Below, in pieces: positions 3,709 through 62,030 of a stretch of 64,000 nucleotides of DNA (the stretch's first letter is position 1; each line of letters starts with the position of its first letter). The stretch spans positions 5,225 through 69,224 of the forward strand of contig QHCE01000009.1 in the NCBI GenBank assembly GCA_003243955.1, written 5' to 3'. The notes below the pieces were generated by a model that did no database searches, had not been told where the DNA came from, and saw nothing but the letters and a program-made list of their open reading frames with translations. Both the position numbers and the translations under genes were made by a program. Source of the stretch: Acidimicrobiales bacterium. GTDB lineage: Bacteria; Actinomycetota; Actinomycetes; Mycobacteriales; QHCE01.

Positions 3709-4578
3709 CTAAGCTTGGGGCTGGCAGCTCGGGCAGTAGAAGGATGAGCGGTTCAGAAACGCTTCTCGCACAATCGCGGTACCGCAGCGCGGGCATGGTC
3801 GGCCATGCTGCCCGTAGGCGTGCAACGAACGATTGAAGTAGCCACTGCGACCATTGACATTCACGTACAGCGAATCAAAAGAAGTACCTCCCGCCGCCAA
3901 CGCCGCTGTGAAAACCTCCCGCAAGCCGACGAGTAGGGCACAAATCTCGAAATTAGTGATTTTCTGGGTGGGCCGTGCGTAATGTACTCGGGCCCGCCAC
4001 AACGCCTCATCGGCATAGATGTTTCCGACGCCAGAAATCAACGTTTGGTCCAGCAAAGCCCGCTTGATGTGAGTACGACGAGCCCGCAGCTTGGCGGAGA
4101 ACACCGCATCGTTGAATGCCCGATCTAGCGGGTCGGGCGCAATGTGCTCCAGACATGCTGGGGGTGCATCGCCAACGGTGGCAGCTACCCATAGCCCGCC
4201 AAAGGTTCGTTGGTCTACAAAGTGCAGACGGCTGGCCTCTGGATTGGCTTCCTGGCTAGCAGCACCAAGTTCAAAACTCACGCGCAGATGCGCGCGCTGT
4301 TGCGACGGCTGGGGCAGCGCAGAAACCAACAGCTGTCCGCTCATACCCAGATGTGCGAGCAGGCAGGCGCCGGTGTCGAGCGGAAGCCAGAGAAATTTGC
4401 CTCGTCGGCGAACGTCTCGAATAGTCGCCCCAGTGACCTGTTCGAGGAAGTCGTCAGGCCCAGCGGCATGCCGCCGAATAGCACGAGGATGCAATACCAC
4501 CGCGCCGGTGATGCGTCGCTGCCGCACCCAGCGATGCAGCCCGCGCCGAATAACTTCGACCTCAGGTAACTCCGGCAT
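3709..4578 (-). CDS. mutM: Formamidopyrimidine-DNA glycosylase
   Basis: It has the N-terminal MPELPEVE motif and a C-terminal zinc finger CPRCGTAI...CPSCQ, and sits beside rnc. Confidence 0.9.
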
Positions 4579-5310: not shown

Positions 5311-5332
5311 GACGTTATGTAAAGACAGAAGT

Positions 5333-5444
5333 GTGCGTCAATCGGTCTCTGCCAAGGCCGCAGGAGCCGCCGCCTACGAAAATGGAGCGCAGCGGAATGG
5401 GTAGGCAAGGTGACGAGAACGCCGGCAGGGGCCGATTGACGCAC
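5333..5444 (+). repeat. Family-2 structured repeat, copy B (complete)
   Basis: It has 21-nt terminal arms GTGCGTCAATCGGTCTCTGCC / GGCAGGGGCCGATTGACGCAC, which pair at 19 Watson-Crick plus 2 G.U positions on the + strand. The core is CAAGGCCGCAGGAGCCGCCGCCTAC...GTAGGCAAGGTGACGAGAACGCCGGCAGG. It fills the rpmF-rnc spacer. Confidence 0.7.
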
Positions 5445-5447
5445 GCT

Positions 5448-17310: not shown

Positions 17311-17450
17311 ACCCCTGGAGTCGGAGCGGAGGCGCTGCGGGCGGGGATGAGATGCAAGGCGGAGAAGGAGACGCATGTGGGCTATGCGCGACGACGACGC
17401 CGCGGATCGCCGCGTCAACCACGCTATGCGTCTGCACAATCAGGGGCTGG
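17311..17450 (+). repeat. Family-1 repeat, diverged core-only copy
   Basis: GATGCAAGGCGGAGAAGGAG-ACGCATgtgggctATGC-GCGACGACGAC-GCCGCGGatcgCCGCG...CAGGGG is collinear with the family-1 core. The hairpins keep their position but have different sequence. No terminal closing arms were recognised. Confidence 0.45.
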
Positions 17451-18339
17451 TCAATACCCCGAGGATAATGCCGATAGCAAACAAGGCCAGCAGAGTCCCC
17501 ATCACTAGCAGTGCGACCCAGCCGCGCACACCCTGCGCCTCTGGCTGTGCGGGTGCCGAATGCCCTATAATAGCACGTTCATGTAAGCCAGTGGGCGACC
17601 ACCAACTTGGCTTAGTGGAGGCCGCGAGGCGCTTCGTCGGGGGCTGAGCGGGAGGAGAGGCATCTACGAGTCGGGCCGGTGCGGCATCTGGGGGGGTGCT
17701 GCTTAAGCTGTCACGGATAGCTTGGGCCAGTACATGACTAGAAGCGCTTAGCGCACTGTATTCAGTCGAGGGGGGCGGATCGTTATCGACACTCGAATTG
17801 TTATCTACTCCCGAGACTGCAACCGAACCAAAACCTAAGGCGGATACTTCATCGGGTAGCTCGGTGGGGGAAGACTCCATAGGCTGCGCCGGCAGCACTC
17901 CACCATCACGTTGGGCGTACAACTCTTTCTCCCGCTGCCGCAGCAAAGCGGCCTCATGGCCAAGCTGCAGCCACGGCCGCCCGGCTCGTACCGCTGCTAC
18001 CCCAGTTGCGGGAACGCCGAGCACGAATAGGGCGCCCAGCAGCAGACCGATGCCGCTTTCGCCTCGAACAAAACTCATCAGCGAGCCGACTGATAGGACA
18101 ATGAGCGCGAGTGCGGCAAAGGCGAGCTTGAAGAAAACTCCGACTGACAAGGCGGAGCGCATACGCTGTCGTAGTTTGCCCAGCCGCGTGCAGATCTGCT
18201 CTAGCTCTAGCTCTACGCCCTGCGCTTGGTTGGCGCGATGCCGCCCAGCCGATGGTGTGGACTCGTCGAAAGGATCGAAATCGGCATCGAATACCGATGC
18301 ATAATACGCCGATTTTCTGGTTTGAGTGTCGCTCCTCAC
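17440..18339 (-). CDS. Hypothetical membrane protein (299 aa)
   Basis: ORF-track ORF with TM segments (VGVFFKLAFAALALIVLSVGSL; WVALLVMGTLLALFAIGIILGVL) and a Pro/Ser-rich disordered middle. I recognise no family. Confidence 0.45.
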   Translation of the reverse strand: MRSDTQTRKSAYYASVFDADFDPFDESTPSAGRHRANQAQGVELELEQICTRLGKLRQRMRSALSVGVFFKLAFAALALIVLSVGSLMSFVRGESGIGLLLGALFVLGVPATGVAAVRAGRPWLQLGHEAALLRQREKELYAQRDGGVLPAQPMESSPTELPDEVSALGFGSVAVSGVDNNSSVDNDPPPSTEYSALSASSHVLAQAIRDSLSSTPPDAAPARLVDASPPAQPPTKRLAASTKPSWWSPTGLHERAIIGHSAPAQPEAQGVRGWVALLVMGTLLALFAIGIILGVLTSP

Positions 18340-24407: not shown

Positions 24408-24562
24408 ACGCCTAGTCTGTCACTTCACGCACCAGATCCCGCCAAGCCCTCTAGGGTAAGGAAAAGCGGAATTGAGCACAGCAGCACTGAATCGTGACCA
24501 CCTGTACGAGTTTGAACGATATACCGCGATTTGAGATACCAGAGGCAGACGGAGCGCCATTA

Positions 24563-24723
24563 AGAGGTCGCGCGGGTTGGTCGTTCGTTGCGAGGTGGTG
24601 CCTGGTCGAGGATGGCAAGGCGGAGGAGGAGTTCATGCTGGATGCATGGGCGACGACGACAACACAGCCAGGCGAAGTGCCAGGGGACACCGCAGTAGAA
24701 CAGCACCAATCCGCGCGACCTCT
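24563..24723 (+). repeat. Family-1 structured repeat, copy 1
   Basis: The closing helix AGAGGTCGCGCGGGTTGGT / ACCAATCCGCGCGACCTCT is 19 bp with one G.U. The core is GGCAAGGCGGAGGAGGAG, hairpin CATGC-tggat-GCATG, GGCGACGACGAC, ...GTGCCAGGGGACACCGCAGTAGAACAGC. It is near-identical to 41057-41232. Confidence 0.78.
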
Positions 24724-24745
24724 CAGCAAGAAAGGCGGCTTGCGC

Positions 24746-34835: not shown

Positions 34836-36917
34836 ATGCAGGGGATGTTGCTCGAAAAGCGCTACCGAATTCGCGGCAAAATAGCCCAGGGCGGCATGGC
34901 CTCGGTGTATGAGGCCTTCGACGAACGACTTGAGCGCCTGGTCGCCGTAAAGATCATGCGTCCGGAGTACGCAACCGACGCAGTGTTCGCCAGCAGGTTC
35001 ATGCGTGAAGCCCGATCGACCGCGGCGCTCAATCACCCACACATCGTCGCAGTGTTCGATCAGGGTCACCACGACAACACCATGTTCCTGGTTATGGAGA
35101 AAGTAGATGGCACCACGTTGCGCGGGGTGCTGAAGCAGCGAGTGCGGCTGAACCTCGCCGAGGCGATCGGCGTAATAGAGCCTGTACTTGCGGCGCTAGC
35201 CCAAGCACACGAGCGGGGCATCGCGCACCGCGACGTGAAACCAGAAAATGTTCTGATCTCCTCGACTGGAATCGTGAAAGTCGCGGACTTCGGCCTTGCC
35301 CGCGCGGTAGAGAGCACTCATCAACTCACCAGCCGCAACACGCTGCTAGGAACCGTCGCCTACTTGGCTCCCGAGCAGATCACCAACGCTGAATCTGATG
35401 CCCGAAGCGACGTCTATGCCGTCGGAATTATGCTATATGAAATGCTCACCGGGGTTAAGCCGCATCAGGGAAGCTCGGCGATGCAGGTCGCTTACCAACA
35501 TGTGAACTCCGATGTGCCGCCACCATCAGACGTTGTGGCACAGCTTCCACCACAGTTCGACGAGCTTGTTGCCGCTGCCACTCGGCGCGACCGCACTCAG
35601 CGGCTGGCTTCCGCCGGGGTTTTCCTCACCGCGCTACGTCAAACTCGGCTTGCTCTAGGCATCACTCCATTGCTTGTTCGGGCCGCTGATGAAGTGAACG
35701 GCGCGACTGAAGCTACGCCACCAGACCCACGATCGCGGGAAAGTGCCTCCGGACTGCCTCCTGCCGCCTCAGGTCAGCAGGAGTCCGCAGAGCCGCAGGA
35801 GGAGCAATCTACTGCTCCACGAAACGATCCCGGCCAGAGCCGGAAAGCACCCAGTACGGGCACCTCAGTGATGCCGCCGCTGGGCCAGCAGCAACTAGGC
35901 GGCTCACTCACAGGAATGCATCGCGGAACCGCCGCCCCAGAGATTTATCAGCCGCCCGAGATGCCATCCGAGCCTCCGCCGCTGGCATCCTCGGCAGAGG
36001 GCGCGCGGCAGGAAAAAGATAAAAAACGCAGACTCCTCATGACCGCGTTGGCCGCGGCAGTGGTGCTGGTACTGCTAGCTGGGGGGTTGCTGTGGTGGTT
36101 AGGCGGGCGCAACGACGTTACCGTTCCCCAGTTCATCGGGTTGGATAAAACCGCGGCGGAAAGCGTTGCTAAAAAAGCGGACATCAAGGTTAGCTACGGC
36201 ACATCCAAATTTTCTGATTCGGTGAGTGAAAACGTCGTATTAGAGCAGAAGCCCGGTGCAAAACAACGCGTGGGTTCTGGCGACACCATCACGCTGGTGC
36301 TCTCGGGTGGGCCAAGGGTCCGCAGCGTACCTCAGGTGCGCGGCAAGACTCGCGACGAAGCTACAAAACTGCTGGAAGCCGAGCATTTCACGCCCGTTGT
36401 CAGCGAAGAAGAGAGCCAAGACATACCCAAAGACAGTGCAATCCACACAGATCCTGGCGAAGGTAGGAAACTTAACGTCGACTCGCAGATCCGGTTAGTA
36501 ATCAGCAAGGGGCGCGGATCTACCCAAGTTCCTGATGTGGTGGGTCTAAGTAGGGCTGACGCCGTAGCTTTGCTCGCCGAGCACGGACTTAAAGCTACGT
36601 TCACTGAAGAAACAACCGACAATGACCCGAATAGCAATGCCAGAATCGACAGTGTGCTCCGGCAACAGACGGCACCTAACTCCACAGTAGAAAAGGGCAG
36701 CGAAGTTGTGCTGGTGATCTCTGGTGGCCCCGCTCAGGTTCAAGTACCCAACGTCCGCGGCTTGGATTGCGCACAGGCACGTGAGCTTCTACGCGGCGCG
36801 GGATTGAAAGCCAACTGTCAAGGTGCAAGTAGGGGCAAAGTCTTTTTCCAGTCACCCAACGCTGGTAGTACAGCAGAGCGAAAAAGCTCCGTGGCACTGT
36901 TCACGTTTCCCATTTAA
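34836..36917 (+). CDS. Ser/Thr protein kinase with four C-terminal PASTA repeats (PknL/PknB-like)
   Basis: It has Hanks motifs GGMASVYEA, VAVKIM, HRDVKPENVL, DFGLA and APE, a TM segment (LLMTALAAAVVLVLLAGGLLWWL), then four PASTA-like units. I chose ATG 34836. Confidence 0.88.
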   Translation: MQGMLLEKRYRIRGKIAQGGMASVYEAFDERLERLVAVKIMRPEYATDAVFASRFMREARSTAALNHPHIVAVFDQGHHDNTMFLVMEKVDGTTLRGVLKQRVRLNLAEAIGVIEPVLAALAQAHERGIAHRDVKPENVLISSTGIVKVADFGLARAVESTHQLTSRNTLLGTVAYLAPEQITNAESDARSDVYAVGIMLYEMLTGVKPHQGSSAMQVAYQHVNSDVPPPSDVVAQLPPQFDELVAAATRRDRTQRLASAGVFLTALRQTRLALGITPLLVRAADEVNGATEATPPDPRSRESASGLPPAASGQQESAEPQEEQSTAPRNDPGQSRKAPSTGTSVMPPLGQQQLGGSLTGMHRGTAAPEIYQPPEMPSEPPPLASSAEGARQEKDKKRRLLMTALAAAVVLVLLAGGLLWWLGGRNDVTVPQFIGLDKTAAESVAKKADIKVSYGTSKFSDSVSENVVLEQKPGAKQRVGSGDTITLVLSGGPRVRSVPQVRGKTRDEATKLLEAEHFTPVVSEEESQDIPKDSAIHTDPGEGRKLNVDSQIRLVISKGRGSTQVPDVVGLSRADAVALLAEHGLKATFTEETTDNDPNSNARIDSVLRQQTAPNSTVEKGSEVVLVISGGPAQVQVPNVRGLDCAQARELLRGAGLKANCQGASRGKVFFQSPNAGSTAERKSSVALFTFPI

Positions 36918-37090
36918 GAGCGCTCGGTAATTGATGCTGTTCTACTGCGGTGTCCCCTGGCACTTGTGTCTCGGCTGTAGCCGAGGATATTGTCGTCGTC
37001 GCCCATACCTTCTCGGTATGAACTCCTCCTCCGCCTTGCCATACTCGACCAGGCACCACCTCGCTACGAACGATCAAATGCCGAACACTC
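36918..37090 (-). repeat. Family-1 structured repeat, copy 2 (inverted orientation, diverged)
   Basis: It is the reverse complement of the family-1 core, with rewritten but still pairing stems. It begins on the nucleotide after the kinase stop codon. Confidence 0.72.
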
Positions 37091-39647: not shown

Positions 39648-40673
39648 TCACCCAAAGAAGACCTCAGCTTCGGCCAAACGCTCCATCGGAACCGTCTTGA
39701 GCTCTCGCGTAGCTTCCTCCAACGGAACCCGGATGATGTCAGTACCGCGCAACGCAACCATCATGCCCCAGTTCCGGTCATGCGCGGCGTCGATGGCGTG
39801 CAGGCCAAATCGGGTGGCCAACACCCGATCGTAGGCGGTAGGTGAGCCACCACGCTGCACATGCCCAAGCACTACCGCGCGCGACTCTTTACCAGTCCGT
39901 TCCTCAATGGTTTGGGCAAGCCACTGGCCAATTCCACCGAGCCGAACGTGACCAAACGCATCCTTCTCCCCGCTGAGCAGCACCTCTGCTCCTTGGGCAG
40001 GCAAGGCACCTTCGGCTACCACCAGGATAGGCGAGTACTGGGTGGCGAACCGGCTCTCCACGTGCTTGATCACCATGTCTAGATCGAACGGACGTTCCGG
40101 CACCAAGATCACGTTCGCGCCTCCAGCAAGCCCGGCATGCAATGCTATCCATCCAGCGTGGCGCCCCATTACTTCCACCACCAGCGCGCGGTGATGGCTC
40201 TCTGCCGTGGTGTGCAACCGGTCGATGGCTTCCATACACACCGTCACCGCAGTGTCGAAACCGAAGGTGTAGTCCGTGGCGCCTAAGTCGTTGTCAATAG
40301 TCTTAGGCACACCGATGACCGGCAAACCCTCGTCAGTGAGGCGCTTGGCCACGCCAAGGGTGTCTTCCCCGCCGATAGCGATCAACGCGTCAATACCCGC
40401 GGTACTCACATTGCGTTTAATTCGATCCGCGCCGCCATCAACCTTGAACGGATTGGTCCTTGATGAGCCCAAAATTGTGCCACCCCGCGGCAAAATGCCC
40501 CGTACTTGCGGCACACCCAACGGCGTAGTGTTTAGCTCCAACGGCCCCCGCCAACCATCACGAAACCCAACGAACTCGTGACCATAAACGCCTACGCCTT
40601 TACGAACGACCGCTCGAATGACCGCGTTGAGCCCCGGACAGTCGCCACCACCCGTGAGTACCCCGATGCGCAT
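39648..40673 (-). CDS. pfkA: 6-phosphofructokinase
   Basis: MRIGVLTGGGDCPGLNAVIRAVV...IGGEDTLGVA...PKTIDNDL...MGRHAGWIAL. Confidence 0.92.
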   Translation of the reverse strand: MRIGVLTGGGDCPGLNAVIRAVVRKGVGVYGHEFVGFRDGWRGPLELNTTPLGVPQVRGILPRGGTILGSSRTNPFKVDGGADRIKRNVSTAGIDALIAIGGEDTLGVAKRLTDEGLPVIGVPKTIDNDLGATDYTFGFDTAVTVCMEAIDRLHTTAESHHRALVVEVMGRHAGWIALHAGLAGGANVILVPERPFDLDMVIKHVESRFATQYSPILVVAEGALPAQGAEVLLSGEKDAFGHVRLGGIGQWLAQTIEERTGKESRAVVLGHVQRGGSPTAYDRVLATRFGLHAIDAAHDRNWGMMVALRGTDIIRVPLEEATRELKTVPMERLAEAEVFFG

Positions 40674-40776
40674 GAATCCGTTACTCCTTCATAGTTAGGT
40701 CTAGACCGATATGGATCGATACCGCACAGCTTGCCACTAACGTCGATTACGAGTTCCGCCGGGCGTTAAAGGGTAT

Positions 40777-40946
40777 CTAGTGTTGTGTAATCGATATCGT
40801 CGTGTGTGTGCTGGGGCTCAGGCGGCGCCTCGCGGCGTTGTCGAAATTTCGGAGGTAGGACACCGCTACCTGAAAATTCTCCGCCTTGCGATCCATCCAC
40901 CTGAACAACCAGCACCCAGAACGGAACATCGATTACACAACACTAG
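40777..40946. other. 170-nt long imperfect hairpin with perfect 19-bp termini (single copy). It could be a 6S-like ncRNA or a MITE-like palindrome.
   Basis: The termini are CTAGTGTTGTGTAATCGAT (40777-40795) / ATCGATTACACAACACTAG (40928-40946). The inner helices are GTGCTGG/CCAGCAC and TCAGG/CCTGA, and the apex is GGTAG-gacaccg-CTACC centred at 40862. Confidence 0.5.
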
Positions 40947-41056
40947 TGCCGTGCCGGGCGGCGGGAAAATTCCGCAGAGCTCGAAAAAAACATGCCCCCA
41001 AGTTTCGCCAAGCTCACGTCAGCTGAGTAACAAATCTGCAAGGATCACTACCACTA

Positions 41057-41232
41057 AGAGGTCGCGCGGGTTGGTCGTTCGTAGCGAGGGCGAAGTTGGC
41101 TAGCGCAGTCCTGGTCGAGGATGGCAAGGCGGAGGAGGAGTTCATGCTGGATGCATGGGCGACGACGACAACACAGCCAGGCGAAGTGCCAGGGGACACC
41201 GCAGTAGAACAGCACCAATCCGCGCGACCTCT
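41057..41232 (+). repeat. Family-1 structured repeat, copy 3
   Basis: It has the same termini and right half as copy 1. The left arm carries a different or inserted segment (GCGAGGGCGAAGTTGGCTAGCGCAGTCCTGG). Confidence 0.78.
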
Positions 41233-41314
41233 CAGCTAAGAGTGTCCAACCTAATTCATGCGGCGCGCATCTGTCGGATAGTGATTGCCGCCAACGGGTG
41301 CGAAAGGATCGGGT

Positions 41315-42397
41315 ATGCAACGCGGCAGCCCACGTATTCCTCCAGTGCTGCGGCGTGGCACGAACCCGATCAATCATCTAGCGGGCGGGCGTCGTCGGCT
41401 ATCTCGTCCATTGGCGGAGGCGCTGCCGGCCGACAAACCGTACTTTTCGGCCTGGACACCCAGCCGAGCGCGAACTGTGGCAAAGCTTCTGGCTGGTCAG
41501 CTCGGCTTCTCCGGCGAGCCGGAGCTACTCCGGCACGGGAACAGCTCGCGCTTTCAACTCGGCGACACCACCGCTAAGCTCACCAACCCCGAATGTACCA
41601 GCCCCGAGGATGTGCAACGGGAGCTGGATTTTGCGCAGCTGTGCCATGACAGTGGCGCGCCAGTACTTACACCGCGGGAGAACACGGTCCGCACGGTCAC
41701 ACAAGGCGGCGAACAGTTCGCCGCCACGTTATGGCCGCATATCCCCGAGGCCGACAAGTCCGCAGACCCATTCCAAGCCGGTCAAGTGCTGGCGACGCTT
41801 CATCAGCTACGGCTGAACACTTCTATTGCCCAGAAGTTGGCCCCGGTCGACCCATGCCGAGTCATCGCACAGTTCATCGATCTGATCACGCCTGTAGCCA
41901 CCTCAGCCGAGCGTACGCTCCTACGCGAGCGTGCCCAGCTTGCGCGTGCAGCCTGGGGCGAGCTCGCCAGTCATCGCGGTCTACCGCAAGTGCCCGTGCA
42001 CCTGAATCATCACGATTCCAGCATCACCGGCAGCCCCCTACATGACGGCAAGCCCGGACCATGGATCGTTAACACTGAATGCTCAGGCCTTGGGCCAGCT
42101 GAGCTGGATCTGCTGCGTGTGCAGCTGCGAGTAGATCGCTTCGGAGCCTCGCCACATATCGTTGACGATTTCCGTGCGGGCTACGCCGCGGTAGCCGGCA
42201 CGGAGGCGCTAAGCGATTGTCCTGAGCTGCTGCGCACTCTGCGCTGCGTGTGGGAGCCGTTCGTGATCGCGGAGCGCTGCTCGGAGTTGGTATATGACGA
42301 GCCTGAGCTGGAGGCAGAGTTCCATATTCGGATAGACAGCCTGCGCTATGAACCAGACGATCCGCACGCGCAGCAGTGGACCCACGTAGCTCACTAA
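41315..42397 (+). CDS. Phosphotransferase (APH/choline-kinase-like) fold protein with degenerate catalytic motifs
   Basis: ATG 41315 follows RBS AAAGGA. The pattern IVNTECSGLGPAELDL resembles the APH motif xIDWExAxxGxPxxDL, and VHLNHHD stands where HGD..N is expected. The family call is weak. Confidence 0.4.
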   Translation: MQRGSPRIPPVLRRGTNPINHLAGGRRRLSRPLAEALPADKPYFSAWTPSRARTVAKLLAGQLGFSGEPELLRHGNSSRFQLGDTTAKLTNPECTSPEDVQRELDFAQLCHDSGAPVLTPRENTVRTVTQGGEQFAATLWPHIPEADKSADPFQAGQVLATLHQLRLNTSIAQKLAPVDPCRVIAQFIDLITPVATSAERTLLRERAQLARAAWGELASHRGLPQVPVHLNHHDSSITGSPLHDGKPGPWIVNTECSGLGPAELDLLRVQLRVDRFGASPHIVDDFRAGYAAVAGTEALSDCPELLRTLRCVWEPFVIAERCSELVYDEPELEAEFHIRIDSLRYEPDDPHAQQWTHVAH

Positions 42398-46910: not shown

Positions 46911-47006
46911 GGCTCTGCCAAGGCCGCAGGAGCCGCCGGCCTACGAAGAAAGTGGAGCAAGGCGGCTCAAAACATGTAGAACGACGGCAGGGACCGATTG
47001 GTGCGC
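46911..47006 (+). repeat. Family-2 structured repeat, copy C
   Basis: GGCTCTGCCAAGGCCGCAGGAGCCGCCGGCCTACGAAG...GGCGGCTC...GTAGAACGACGGCAGGGACCGATTGGTGCGC. It lies between convergent genes and ends 3 nt before the hemW stop. Confidence 0.6.
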
Positions 47007-51371: not shown

Positions 51372-51476
51372 AGAGGGTGTGCCAAATAGACCCCTGCCGG
51401 CGTTCTCGTCGCCTTGTCTACCTTCGTAGGCGGCGGCTCCTGCGGCCTTGGCAGATGCCCTATTGGCGCACCCTCT
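51372..51476 (-). repeat. Family-2 structured repeat, copy D (inverted orientation)
   Basis: Its terminal arms are AGAGGGTGTGCCAAATAGACCCCTGCC / GGCAGATGCCCTATTGGCGCACCCTCT. The core is the reverse complement of copy B. It lies 60 nt downstream of the antitoxin-like gene, on that gene's strand. Confidence 0.7.
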
Positions 51477-60467: not shown

Positions 60468-62030
60468 ATGAGTCGAACATCCAGCTCGCGTCGCAGTCTA
60501 CGCAAACCTGCCACGAAGAAAGCCACCGCTGCTACTACCGAGCAGACGGCGTCCGACACCGCAGAGCATGCGCAGGCGAACGAGCCAACTCCCGACGATA
60601 CGAGGGCGCAGACACCCACGGTGCCCACTTGGCCCGAAGCGATCGAGGCGATGAATCGGCTCGCTGTGCTACTAGAAGAACGCGGCGAGGTTGCCGACGC
60701 GGTGCTGTGGTACGCCAAGGCCGCGGTTGCCGGAGACTTAGCGGCCGCGTACAACTTGGGGTTGCTATACCGGGATTTGGGTGAGACCGAAGCAGCCGGC
60801 CAGTGGCTGTCGCATGCGGCAACCGCCGGTGACATCGACGCGGCATACGCTCTGGGTGCGCTGCTACTGCAGCAAGGCGATCGTAGCGCCGCCGAACGGT
60901 GGCTGACCGTGGCCATGTCGGCGGGTGATCCAGATGCCCTCAACGCGATGGGCGTGCTGCGCCGAGAACGCGACGACACCCCGGCGGCAGAAAATTGCTT
61001 CCGGCGTGCTGCTGAAATGGGCAGCTCCAGTGGCGCCTACAACCTGGCGATGCTGTTGCGGGAGAGCAGCCGGCCAGCCGACAACGCCCAAGCGCGCAGC
61101 TGGCTACTTACCGCAGCCGATGGCGGGGACCCCGACGCCGCCTACAGCGCCGCTATCTCTGCTCGATCCGGTGGCGATACGGAAGCGGCCGAAAAGTACT
61201 TCGGTATCGCCGCTGAAGCCGGAAGCCTCAAAGCGGCGCACACCTTGGGCCGGTTACGGCACGACCGCGGCGATCTGGGTGCCGCGGAGCGTTGGTACCG
61301 AGTTGCCGCCGAAGGTGGCCATGTCAATGCCATGAACAACCTGGGTGTCTTTTACGGTGACCTTGGAGATGCCCAGCAGGCCGAACATTGGTATCTGCGA
61401 GCAATTGAGGCTGGGCATCAGCCCGCTGTGTACAACTTGGGAGTGCTGTTAGAGCAGCAGAATAAACTGAGCCGCGCCGCGGAGTGGTATCAGCGCGCCG
61501 CCGAAACCGGAAACTCTGATTCCGCATACAACCTAGGGGTGCTACTTCGCGACAAGGGCCGAACTGGCGAGGCGGAGCCGTGGTTCCGGCAAGCCGCCAC
61601 AGTTGGCGACAACGATGCCGCGTACAACTTAGCGGTGCTACTCGCCGAACGGGAAGAGTACAGCGAAGCTCAGATCTGGTTTCAACAGGCGGCAATCGCC
61701 GGAGACGCCGAATCAGCTGAGCAACTTGCGGTGCTACTGGAACGCCAAGGGAATGCGGCACAGGCACAGGAGTGGCGAAACCGTGACATGTTGGGCGAAC
61801 AAGGCTCGGGGCCAGTGACATTGAGCACTCTCCTGAACGCCGAACCGTCAAGCGCGACAGCATGGATGCCTGAACCGGCAAAACCAGAGGTGTCGGAGCT
61901 CGAGGTGCCGCAGTCGGAGGCGTTGCAGTCGGAGGCAGCGCAACTCGAGGTGCCAGAACCGCAGGCATCTGAACCGGATCCATCTAAGCAGCAGCCCTCA
62001 GTAACCGAGCTCTCCAGCAGGACCGCCTAA
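60468..62030 (+). CDS. Sel1-like / TPR repeat protein with acidic Pro/Glu/Ser-rich tail
   Basis: It has at least 10 units of about 36 aa of the type AAYNLGxLLxxxGxxxEAxxWYxRAAxxG, and the C-terminus EVSELEVPQSEALQSEAAQLEVPEPQASEPDPS. Confidence 0.72.
   Translation: MSRTSSSRRSLRKPATKKATAATTEQTASDTAEHAQANEPTPDDTRAQTPTVPTWPEAIEAMNRLAVLLEERGEVADAVLWYAKAAVAGDLAAAYNLGLLYRDLGETEAAGQWLSHAATAGDIDAAYALGALLLQQGDRSAAERWLTVAMSAGDPDALNAMGVLRRERDDTPAAENCFRRAAEMGSSSGAYNLAMLLRESSRPADNAQARSWLLTAADGGDPDAAYSAAISARSGGDTEAAEKYFGIAAEAGSLKAAHTLGRLRHDRGDLGAAERWYRVAAEGGHVNAMNNLGVFYGDLGDAQQAEHWYLRAIEAGHQPAVYNLGVLLEQQNKLSRAAEWYQRAAETGNSDSAYNLGVLLRDKGRTGEAEPWFRQAATVGDNDAAYNLAVLLAEREEYSEAQIWFQQAAIAGDAESAEQLAVLLERQGNAAQAQEWRNRDMLGEQGSGPVTLSTLLNAEPSSATAWMPEPAKPEVSELEVPQSEALQSEAAQLEVPEPQASEPDPSKQQPSVTELSSRTA

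Follow-up and report, generated by a model that had tools for sequence, protein, structure and literature searches.

Small non-autonomous DNA transposons, or MITEs, are recognized by a length below 500–800 bp, terminal inverted repeats (TIRs) of 4–30 bp, target-site duplications of 2–10 bp, the absence of a transposase gene and transcripts that form stable stem-loops (PMC10969869, PMC11602168). Elements of the IS630 family insert at TA and duplicate TA (PMC2170065), and IS630 itself, according to the title of a paper in that article's reference list (Tenzen & Ohtsubo 1991), prefers the TA of 5'-CTAG-3'. IS5-related MITEs such as MITEPsy1 duplicate four nucleotides, CTAG or YTAA, and the ends of the IS5 group read GGAAGGT... 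or GAGGGTG... (PMC3189936). Transcribed MITEs, such as the Correia and ERIC elements, are processed by RNases (PMC10969869).

The element described here is a 170-nt hairpin, its flanking CTAG tetranucleotides included, at 40777..40946 (minus strand) of a 64-kb stretch of DNA (the window). Like the MITEs of the IS630/Tc1-mariner group (RUP of Streptococcus pneumoniae, plant Stowaway), it is small and ORF-less, with perfect TIRs, TA at both junctions and presence/absence polymorphism between close relatives, and it shares with IS630 the CTAG context named in the reference list of PMC2170065. It differs from these MITEs in lacking sequence similarity to any described element, in pairing over its whole length rather than at its termini alone, and in its host, an uncultured actinobacterium of about 60% G+C. 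The ERIC/IRU elements of Enterobacteriaceae and Vibrionaceae are likewise intergenic and imperfectly palindromic throughout, with orientation-dependent RNA hairpins that can change mRNA fate and a highly variable copy number (PMC10969869), but ERIC is 127 bp long and unrelated in sequence and host range, whereas the present element measures 164–170 bp and ends in sharp, perfect 16-nt TIRs. The IS5-derived MITEPsy1 of Pseudomonas syringae, which inserts at CTAG or YTAA with a 4-nt duplication, would explain the CTAG...CTAG flanks (PMC3189936), although it is only 100 nt long, is not a whole-length hairpin and belongs to a group whose ends start with GG or GA rather than the TGTTG with which our element would begin under a CTAG duplication. 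The Correia repeat-enclosed elements of Neisseria share a TA duplication, TIRs, a length of about 100–160 bp and a transcribed hairpin that is cut by RNase III (PMC10969869), but they are unrelated in sequence, contain promoter elements as well as IHF sites and number in the hundreds, compared with two known copies of the subfamily described here.

We propose that the hairpin is, in all likelihood, a MITE of about 164 bp with perfect 16-nt TIRs of sequence GTGTTGTGTAATCGAT, moved in trans. Set against the usual definition, it is 164–170 bp long and contains no transposase gene, its terminal repeats (16 nt perfect, or 19 nt with the CTAG) are longer than the 10–15 bp taken as a minimum, CTAG flanks both known copies where the empty site has one CCAG, as a duplication of 2–10 bp would leave it, and it lies at two unrelated loci in two organisms while being absent from two relatives of the window. 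With two loci flanked by CTAG and an empty site, it therefore falls within the operational definition of a MITE. The only ORF that crosses it (40780–41103) runs into the flank and matches nothing in Pfam, where the 46 ORFs of the window likewise match no transposase family. Since the element encodes nothing, its movement would have to depend on a transposase gene at another place in the genome.

The termini of the hairpin, CTAGTGTTGTGTAATCGAT (40777–40795) and ATCGATTACACAACACTAG (40928–40946), are exact reverse complements over 19 nt, in agreement with an earlier note on this DNA that had described perfectly paired 19-bp ends. If the duplication is TA, the left TIR spans 40780..40795 on the plus strand and the right TIR, its exact reverse complement, 40928..40943 on the minus strand, each 16 nt long. 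The helices GTGCTGG/CCAGCAC and TCAGG/CCTGA and the apical hairpin GGTAG-gacaccg-CTACC (40854..40870), which the note had also named, are all found in the predicted folds; the stem beneath the apical hairpin differs between the two known copies by compensatory changes, with pairs 73:101, 74:100 and 75:99 altered on both sides. Both strands fold far more stably than shuffled sequences, as expected of the long hairpin that had been claimed: the plus strand reaches −78.9 kcal/mol (z −7.4) and the minus strand −92.0 kcal/mol (z −11.2); for neither strand did any of 200 shuffles match this stability. The better-folding minus strand is sense with respect to pfkA and bears a motif common to a neighbouring repeat family, family-1. 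The mostly unpaired stretch of about 12 nt that had been reported inside each terminus is a feature of the plus strand only, as the minus strand largely pairs it through G·U, and the minimum free energy and centroid structures of the better-folding strand, in the window and in the second copy alike, contain no bulge or internal loop larger than 5 nt.

No other site for the 19-mer terminus exists in the 64-kb window at up to three mismatches (0 expected by chance), and a profile built from the two known copies likewise recovers no second 170-nt copy there, so that this part of the earlier description stands. A full second copy is present at 143–311 of L047 (Ga0136627_1001508), a metagenome contig of 62% G+C. 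It is 85% identical over 171 columns, its terminal repeats agree at 16/16 and 15/16 positions, and it is flanked on both sides by CTAG, as in the window. Its neighbours (M15 peptidase, LeuRS, MoxR, a TetR regulator and an MFS transporter) mark a locus unrelated to pfkA, where the element occupies the loop of a 17-bp flanking hairpin (GAGAGACTTTTCAACGAC / GTCGTTGAAAAGTCTCTG). For the M15 peptidase, NCBI assemblies contain no homologue more than 71% identical, and the host is therefore a different organism. The nearest peptidase homologues, 71% and 63% identical, have different neighbours and were unusable as a source of an empty L047 site.

This copy was found by scanning for the exact terminal 18-mer TARTGTTGTGTAATCGAT, first in 185,579 species genomes and then in metagenome contigs. 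The species genomes gave four single matches, none with a partner terminus, three of which are in unrelated phyla and presumably due to chance; a solo 18-nt match in L003, a Mycobacteriales MAG, ends a malic-enzyme ORF without a partner terminus and was taken as chance or a relic. The metagenomes gave 36 single matches, with L047 as the sole real copy: 34 of them lie in low-G+C contigs in which only 15–19 nt of the terminus are alike and were treated as chance, and L016 (62% G+C) contains one terminus-like site only. The exact terminus had no match in viral contigs, plasmids or phages, the six-frame translations of both copies, concatenated as a protein query, had none at E ≤ 10, and in the literature the terminal-repeat strings led only to unrelated primer sequences. 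A longer element bounded by the exact terminal repeat was found in none of the genomes, metagenomes, viral contigs, plasmids and phages scanned with exact 18-mers. These scans weigh against the MITE assignment to the extent that they yielded no autonomous element or transposase with the same terminal repeats, and the subfamily is known from two copies only.

The insertion itself can be read from the orthologous locus of a close relative. The Logan contig L007 has the same gene order around pfkA, encodes a 97% identical PfkA and is 92–93% identical to the window at the nucleotide level in the flanking genes, but its pfkA upstream region measures 315 bp compared with about 641 bp in the window, and it lacks both the 170-nt hairpin and family-1 copy 3. 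When exactly 166 bp are taken out of the window, the two genomes become colinear without gaps on both flanks, between two conserved blocks, GGAATTTT at 27 nt off one side and GACGTTAGTGGCAAGC on the other; in place of the CTAG-[162 nt]-CTAG of the window, L007 has a single CCAG. A more distant relative, L012 (PfkA 89% identical), is also without trace of the element upstream of pfkA. The check for conservation in relatives that the earlier note had suggested thus found the element missing from both, a precise presence/absence polymorphism. The comparison with L007 shows that the element inserted at a CTAG site after the split from a relative with about 92% identical flanking DNA; in the simplest history, it entered the window's lineage and duplicated a palindromic target in doing so.

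The duplicated sequence would be either the TA inside CTAG, in the style of IS630/Tc1-mariner, with putative copies at 40778..40779 (within CTAG 40777–40780) and 40944..40945 (within CTAG 40943–40946), or the whole CTAG, in the style of IS5. As the target is palindromic, the two cannot be told apart, and because the stretch left of the site is poorly conserved between the genomes, the length of the duplication (2 bp, 4 bp, or none together with a 4-nt indel) is chosen by parsimony. Two details fit a duplication less well: the empty site reads CCAG rather than CTAG, and the 10 nt to its left are poorly conserved. The palindromic target also accounts for the earlier statement that no target-site duplication was obvious, since such a target reads as three or four extra bases of the inverted repeat; that statement gives way to a reading in which the outer CTAG, or its central TA, acts as a palindromic duplication.

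We therefore considered which type of enzyme might mobilize the element. An IS630/Tc1-mariner-type transposase would cut and paste it into TA, duplicating TA; an IS5-type enzyme, which would duplicate CTAG, is the alternative. TA lies inside CTAG at all four junctions of the two copies, which fits insertion at TA but also a 4-bp CTAG duplication of the IS5 type. We favour the IS630 type, to which we would give a little less than an even chance, because IS5-type ends start with GG or GA while the element would start with TGTTG under a CTAG duplication; the IS5 type appears a distinctly weaker candidate, and the rest falls to other mechanisms.

The element is not without kin in the window. Three family-1 repeats of 168–183 nt, all hairpins over their whole length, are placed in the same superfamily by alignments, fold and a joint profile: copy 1 (24560..24727, plus strand), the divergent copy 2 (36913..37087, minus strand), whose ends, TTAGAGTGTTCGGCATTTGATCGTTCG, are of a type intermediate between those of family-1 and of the 170-nt element, and copy 3 (41054..41236, plus strand), which shares the gap upstream of pfkA with the element, as the earlier note had observed. 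The profile of the two 170-nt copies matched these repeats weakly. The minus strand of the element and the plus strands of copies 1 and 3 have GGTnGA(T)GGATnGCAAGGCGGAGGA in common at the same left-end offset; in the element this core motif, GGTGGATGGATCGCAAGGCGGAG, lies at 40879..40902 (minus strand), with the same polarity, and includes a Shine-Dalgarno-like GGAG. Local alignment of this common 25-nt motif reached a z of about 6, a score matched by none of 500 shuffles, and did so in that orientation only. Global alignments of the element with the three family-1 copies scored z 3.5–7.2 above shuffles in the same orientation, whereas in the opposite orientation five of the six comparisons stayed at z about 1–2; the exception, copy 2 against the window copy (z 4.2), is attributed to palindromic end similarity.

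A joint nhmmer profile recovers the four full elements of the window together with a core-only relative or relic at 17345..17412 (plus strand; GCAAGGCGGAGAAGGAG...GCGACGACGAC; E 0.006), which overlaps the start of an unannotated 90-aa ORF. In an alignment of five sequences, 15 of the 46 consensus pairs show compensatory changes, and the superfamily core motif, GGAT.GCAAGGCGGAGGA ... CGACGACAAC, has one strand polarity throughout. On these alignments and profiles, the 170-nt element is a diverged relative of family-1 within a lineage-specific superfamily of hairpin repeats of about 170–185 nt. The earlier suggestion of a solitary, non-autonomous transposable element is thus upheld as regards mobility, by the presence/absence polymorphism, the duplication and the second copy, but the word solitary has to be dropped for an element related to the multi-copy family that adjoins it.

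Family-1 differs from the 170-nt subfamily in abundance and in its ends. L002 is a contig of a fragmented same-species assembly. By coordinate arithmetic, both of its ends lie inside family-1 copies, and family-1 is therefore highly repeated in that genome. The 170-nt element does not interrupt the L002 assembly, and identical copies are thus probably few in that genome; unlike family-1, the 170-nt subfamily is, to judge from the assembly, low-copy in the L002 genome. The family-1 ends (YTAA on the left and TCAG on the right; end sequence AGAGGTCGCGCGG) are not clean duplications, and no model of the three considered (TA, TNA and 4-bp) suits every copy, which weighs against the MITE assignment. 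A small ORF behind the family-1 sequence GGAGGAGGAG...ATG was rejected, its frame not being conserved in copy 2, and Rfam searches of the element and family-1 at gathering and permissive thresholds returned nothing relevant.

The most serious alternative refines the MITE assignment rather than replacing it: the element may be a mobile element that carries a functional one-strand hairpin, a structured-RNA module of the ERIC, Correia or REP type, which on co-transcription with neighbouring genes would change the stability, the processing (for example by RNase III) or the translation of the mRNA, with participation of the GGAGG-like core. Transcription in the pfkA sense would yield an RNA that folds into an almost unbroken hairpin of some 70 base pairs (−92 kcal/mol). 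In all five elements compared, the motif-bearing strand is the better folder, at −92.0 against −78.9 kcal/mol for the other strand in the window copy, −94.4 against −70.4 in the L047 copy, −86.2 against −68.6 in family-1 copy 1, −83.2 against −75.9 in copy 3 and −60.4 against −51.3 in copy 2. On this strand G·U outnumbers A·C by 5:0 in the window copy and by 10:3 in the L047 copy, in an arm-versus-arm alignment that does not favour wobble pairs. Between these two copies all 63 consensus pairs are kept, through four double changes and five single changes that all lead to G·U, with none broken, and paired columns change at about 10% compared with about 29% for unpaired ones. Whole-length pairing, compensatory changes (including those in the superfamily alignment) and a one-strand G·U bias exceed what a transposase needs, which speaks for a further constraint; such pairing beyond terminus binding suggests that either a transcript or one of the DNA strands is under selection. 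Of the four full window elements, three also aim the motif strand, in the sense direction, at the start of an adjacent gene (the 170-nt element at pfkA, family-1 copy 3 at the gene at 41285 and copy 1 at a deacetylase gene), and MITE transcripts are known to affect mRNA fate in other bacteria (PMC10969869).

We nevertheless regard this extension as possible rather than probable. It is drawn from two subfamily sequences only, and its shuffle control is weak, with 29 of 500 shuffles reaching the observed value. The pair counts are biased, since the consensus structure comes from the motif-bearing strand itself, and many of the G·U pairs are common by descent and not independent. Template-switch repair within quasi-palindromes can give rise to "compensatory" changes in the absence of selection and could have yielded those seen here. 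One family-1 copy and the L047 copy, moreover, are not sense-upstream of a gene. A stronger version, which we consider improbable, would make the element and family-1 an undescribed superfamily of strand-specific structured elements, serving as an RNase III-processed or ribosome-interacting module under transcript-level or one-strand selection; here a partly unpaired, GGAGG-containing core and the whole-length hairpin may be kept by selection and delivered beside genes such as pfkA.

The difference in folding between the two strands would also suit a single-strand mechanism. Like PATEs and REPINs, the element would then travel in single-stranded form, mobilized by a Y1 (HUH) transposase (IS200/IS605 or RAYT type), and insert 3' of a CTAG-like tetranucleotide without true duplication. 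A net insertion of 166 bp with one tetranucleotide at the empty site is consistent with this scheme if the far end of the element has a similar one, as are the YTAA and TCAG ends of family-1. In IS200/IS605 elements, however, the ends carry subterminal hairpins that are separate and directly oriented, and REPINs consist of short, GC-rich REP palindromes. The ends of our element are perfect inverted repeats of each other, and the 46 window ORFs match neither Y1_Tnp nor any RAYT family in Pfam, so that neither ends nor ORFs have the features that define REPINs or PATEs; REP palindromes, as PMC3733652 describes them, carry GTAG/CGTC tags. We therefore hold a Y1 mechanism to be very unlikely and retain cut-and-paste movement of a MITE as the preferred account.

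The idea of a 6S-like (or Ms1-like) small RNA gene, whose hairpin would sequester RNA polymerase by imitating an open promoter, is largely refuted and scarcely credible: the intergenic position, the size and rod-like shape (about 170 nt, with a closing stem and terminal loop in a long irregular hairpin, against the 170–190 nt of 6S RNA, RF00013) and the much better folding of one strand are as expected of such an RNA, but the large internal bubble on which the earlier note had based the likeness is absent from the better-folding strand, a near-continuous helix, the covariance models that it had proposed gave no match to 6S, Ms1 or any other family over the whole window at gathering thresholds and, at E ≤ 10 over 40500–41400, only a chance Xoo5 match outside the element, and a sequence that is missing at the orthologous site in both relatives, recurs at a non-syntenic locus, is bounded by a transposon-type duplication and is homologous to a dispersed repeat family does not behave as a conserved single-copy gene.

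As a MITE, the element has inserted into otherwise ordinary core chromosome. The window, of about 60% G+C, encodes, among others, RNase III, LigA, NAD-glutamate dehydrogenase, a PknB-type kinase, bacterioferritin, DAHP synthase, PfkA, DnaJ/HrcA and cytochrome oxidase subunit I. The pfkA gene (39648..40673, minus strand) encodes a 6-phosphofructokinase of 341 aa, as identified by PF00365 and by the names of its homologues, the closest named of which are from Cryptosporangium (84–86% identical), followed at about 78–83% by those of Micromonosporaceae and of MAGs labelled "Mycobacteriales bacterium". Two MAG assemblies, GCA_036837295.1 and GCA_050999955.1, hold an identical pfkA region, element included. 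A 458-aa PfkA homologue (P0002) was suspected of having been called through the element and was rejected, as it comes from an unrelated contig without the element.

The upstream gap of pfkA spans about 610–640 bp, with a divergently transcribed gene of unknown function on its far side, and the element sits 104 bp upstream of the pfkA start codon. The 103-bp spacer between them (40674..40776, minus strand) holds the block GACGTTAGTGGCAAGCTGTGYGGTATCGA, which the alignment shows to be conserved in both L007 and L012. Given that the insertion lies just upstream of this block, the proximal control region of pfkA probably remains intact, and the effect of the insertion on pfkA is probably neutral or mildly modulatory. 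Neither a sigma-70 promoter consensus nor a terminator consensus was found on either strand of 40500–41450.

We conclude that the 170-nt hairpin is a new, lineage-specific MITE-like element of a kind that is already known and fairly ordinary. Its assignment removes a false candidate for a 6S-type regulatory RNA from the annotation, and illustrates how a palindromic target such as CTAG can conceal a target-site duplication within an apparently longer inverted repeat. It adds a small MITE-like superfamily to a poorly sampled, uncultured actinobacterial lineage near Cryptosporangium and Micromonosporaceae, in which the control region of the central glycolytic gene pfkA has received two independent recent insertions. 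The superfamily repeats explain contig breaks in fragmented assemblies of the species and are potential strain markers. The one-strand folding bias, together with the common core motif, is the only feature of wider interest, and might reflect a role at the RNA level.

Hairpin repeats are abundant in the source genome. The family-1 repeats at 24560-24727 (+), 36913-37087 (-) and 41054-41236 (+), copies 1, 2 and 3 respectively, are 168-183 nt long, form a hairpin over their whole length and are distant homologues of the 170-nt element, the hairpin upstream of pfkA. The copies differ in their apical stem by a compensatory exchange (CATGC/GCATG against CATACC/GGTATG), and no clean target duplication was seen at the ends of the window's family-1 copies (YTAAGAGGTCGCGCGG / CCGCGCGACCTCTCAG). 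Family-1 is evidently repeated in the genome of a same-species contig (GCA_050999955.1, JBPCOV010000061.1; 4.3 kb, from a fragmented assembly) often enough to break assemblies, because one end of this contig lies at the outer edge of copy 3 and the other inside copy 2, corresponding to window positions 41236 and 36965.

Copy 3 lies ~50-80 bp upstream of the start of a gene divergent from pfkA (41285-42397, +), whose 360-370-aa product has no Pfam match and which is kept both in L007, a contig of a close relative, and in L012, from a more distant one. L007 lacks copy 3, as it lacks the 170-nt element. In L007, a stretch of 17 nt is tandemly duplicated (GTCTAGACCTGGCTACT) immediately upstream of the pfkA ribosome-binding site (~3960-3990); this duplication is not found in the window at 40690-40715.

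A core-only relic of the superfamily comprising family-1 and the 170-nt element is located at 17345-17412 (GCAAGGCGGAGAAGGAG-ACGC-ATG...GCGACGACGAC), and its GGAG-rich motif and ATG fall where an unannotated ORF of 90 aa (17375-17647), with no Pfam match, begins. Small palindromic repeats of ~100-120 nt that lie between genes, at 2253-2342, 5330-5447, 46914-47004 and 51385-51458, make up a third family; it has a conserved core (CTGCCAAGGCCGCAGGAGCCGCCG...GAACGCCGGCAGGG), and the best two copies have folding energies of -60 to -69 kcal/mol. Within a coding sequence, a TPR/Sel1-repeat protein gene (60468-62030) contains internal DNA repeats with 96-nt periodicity at 60744-61639 and a 15-nt periodic stretch at 61887-61966.

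The terminal repeat of the 170-nt element has solo matches in two other high-G+C actinobacterial contigs, one from a Mycobacteriales MAG (L003, 793-810) and one from a metagenome (L016, 95-112). The former constitutes the final codons (SITQH*) of a malic-enzyme ORF, after the latter comes a partial palindrome (GTAATCGATTAC), and neither has a partner terminus nearby; these matches may be relics or chance occurrences. On metagenome contig L047, the flanks of the second copy of the 170-nt element pair into a 17-bp hairpin (126-345; GAGAGACTTTTCAACGAC ... GTCGTTGAAAAGTCTCTG) whose loop contains the copy, and this placement suggests an insertion preference for palindromic or terminator-like sites.
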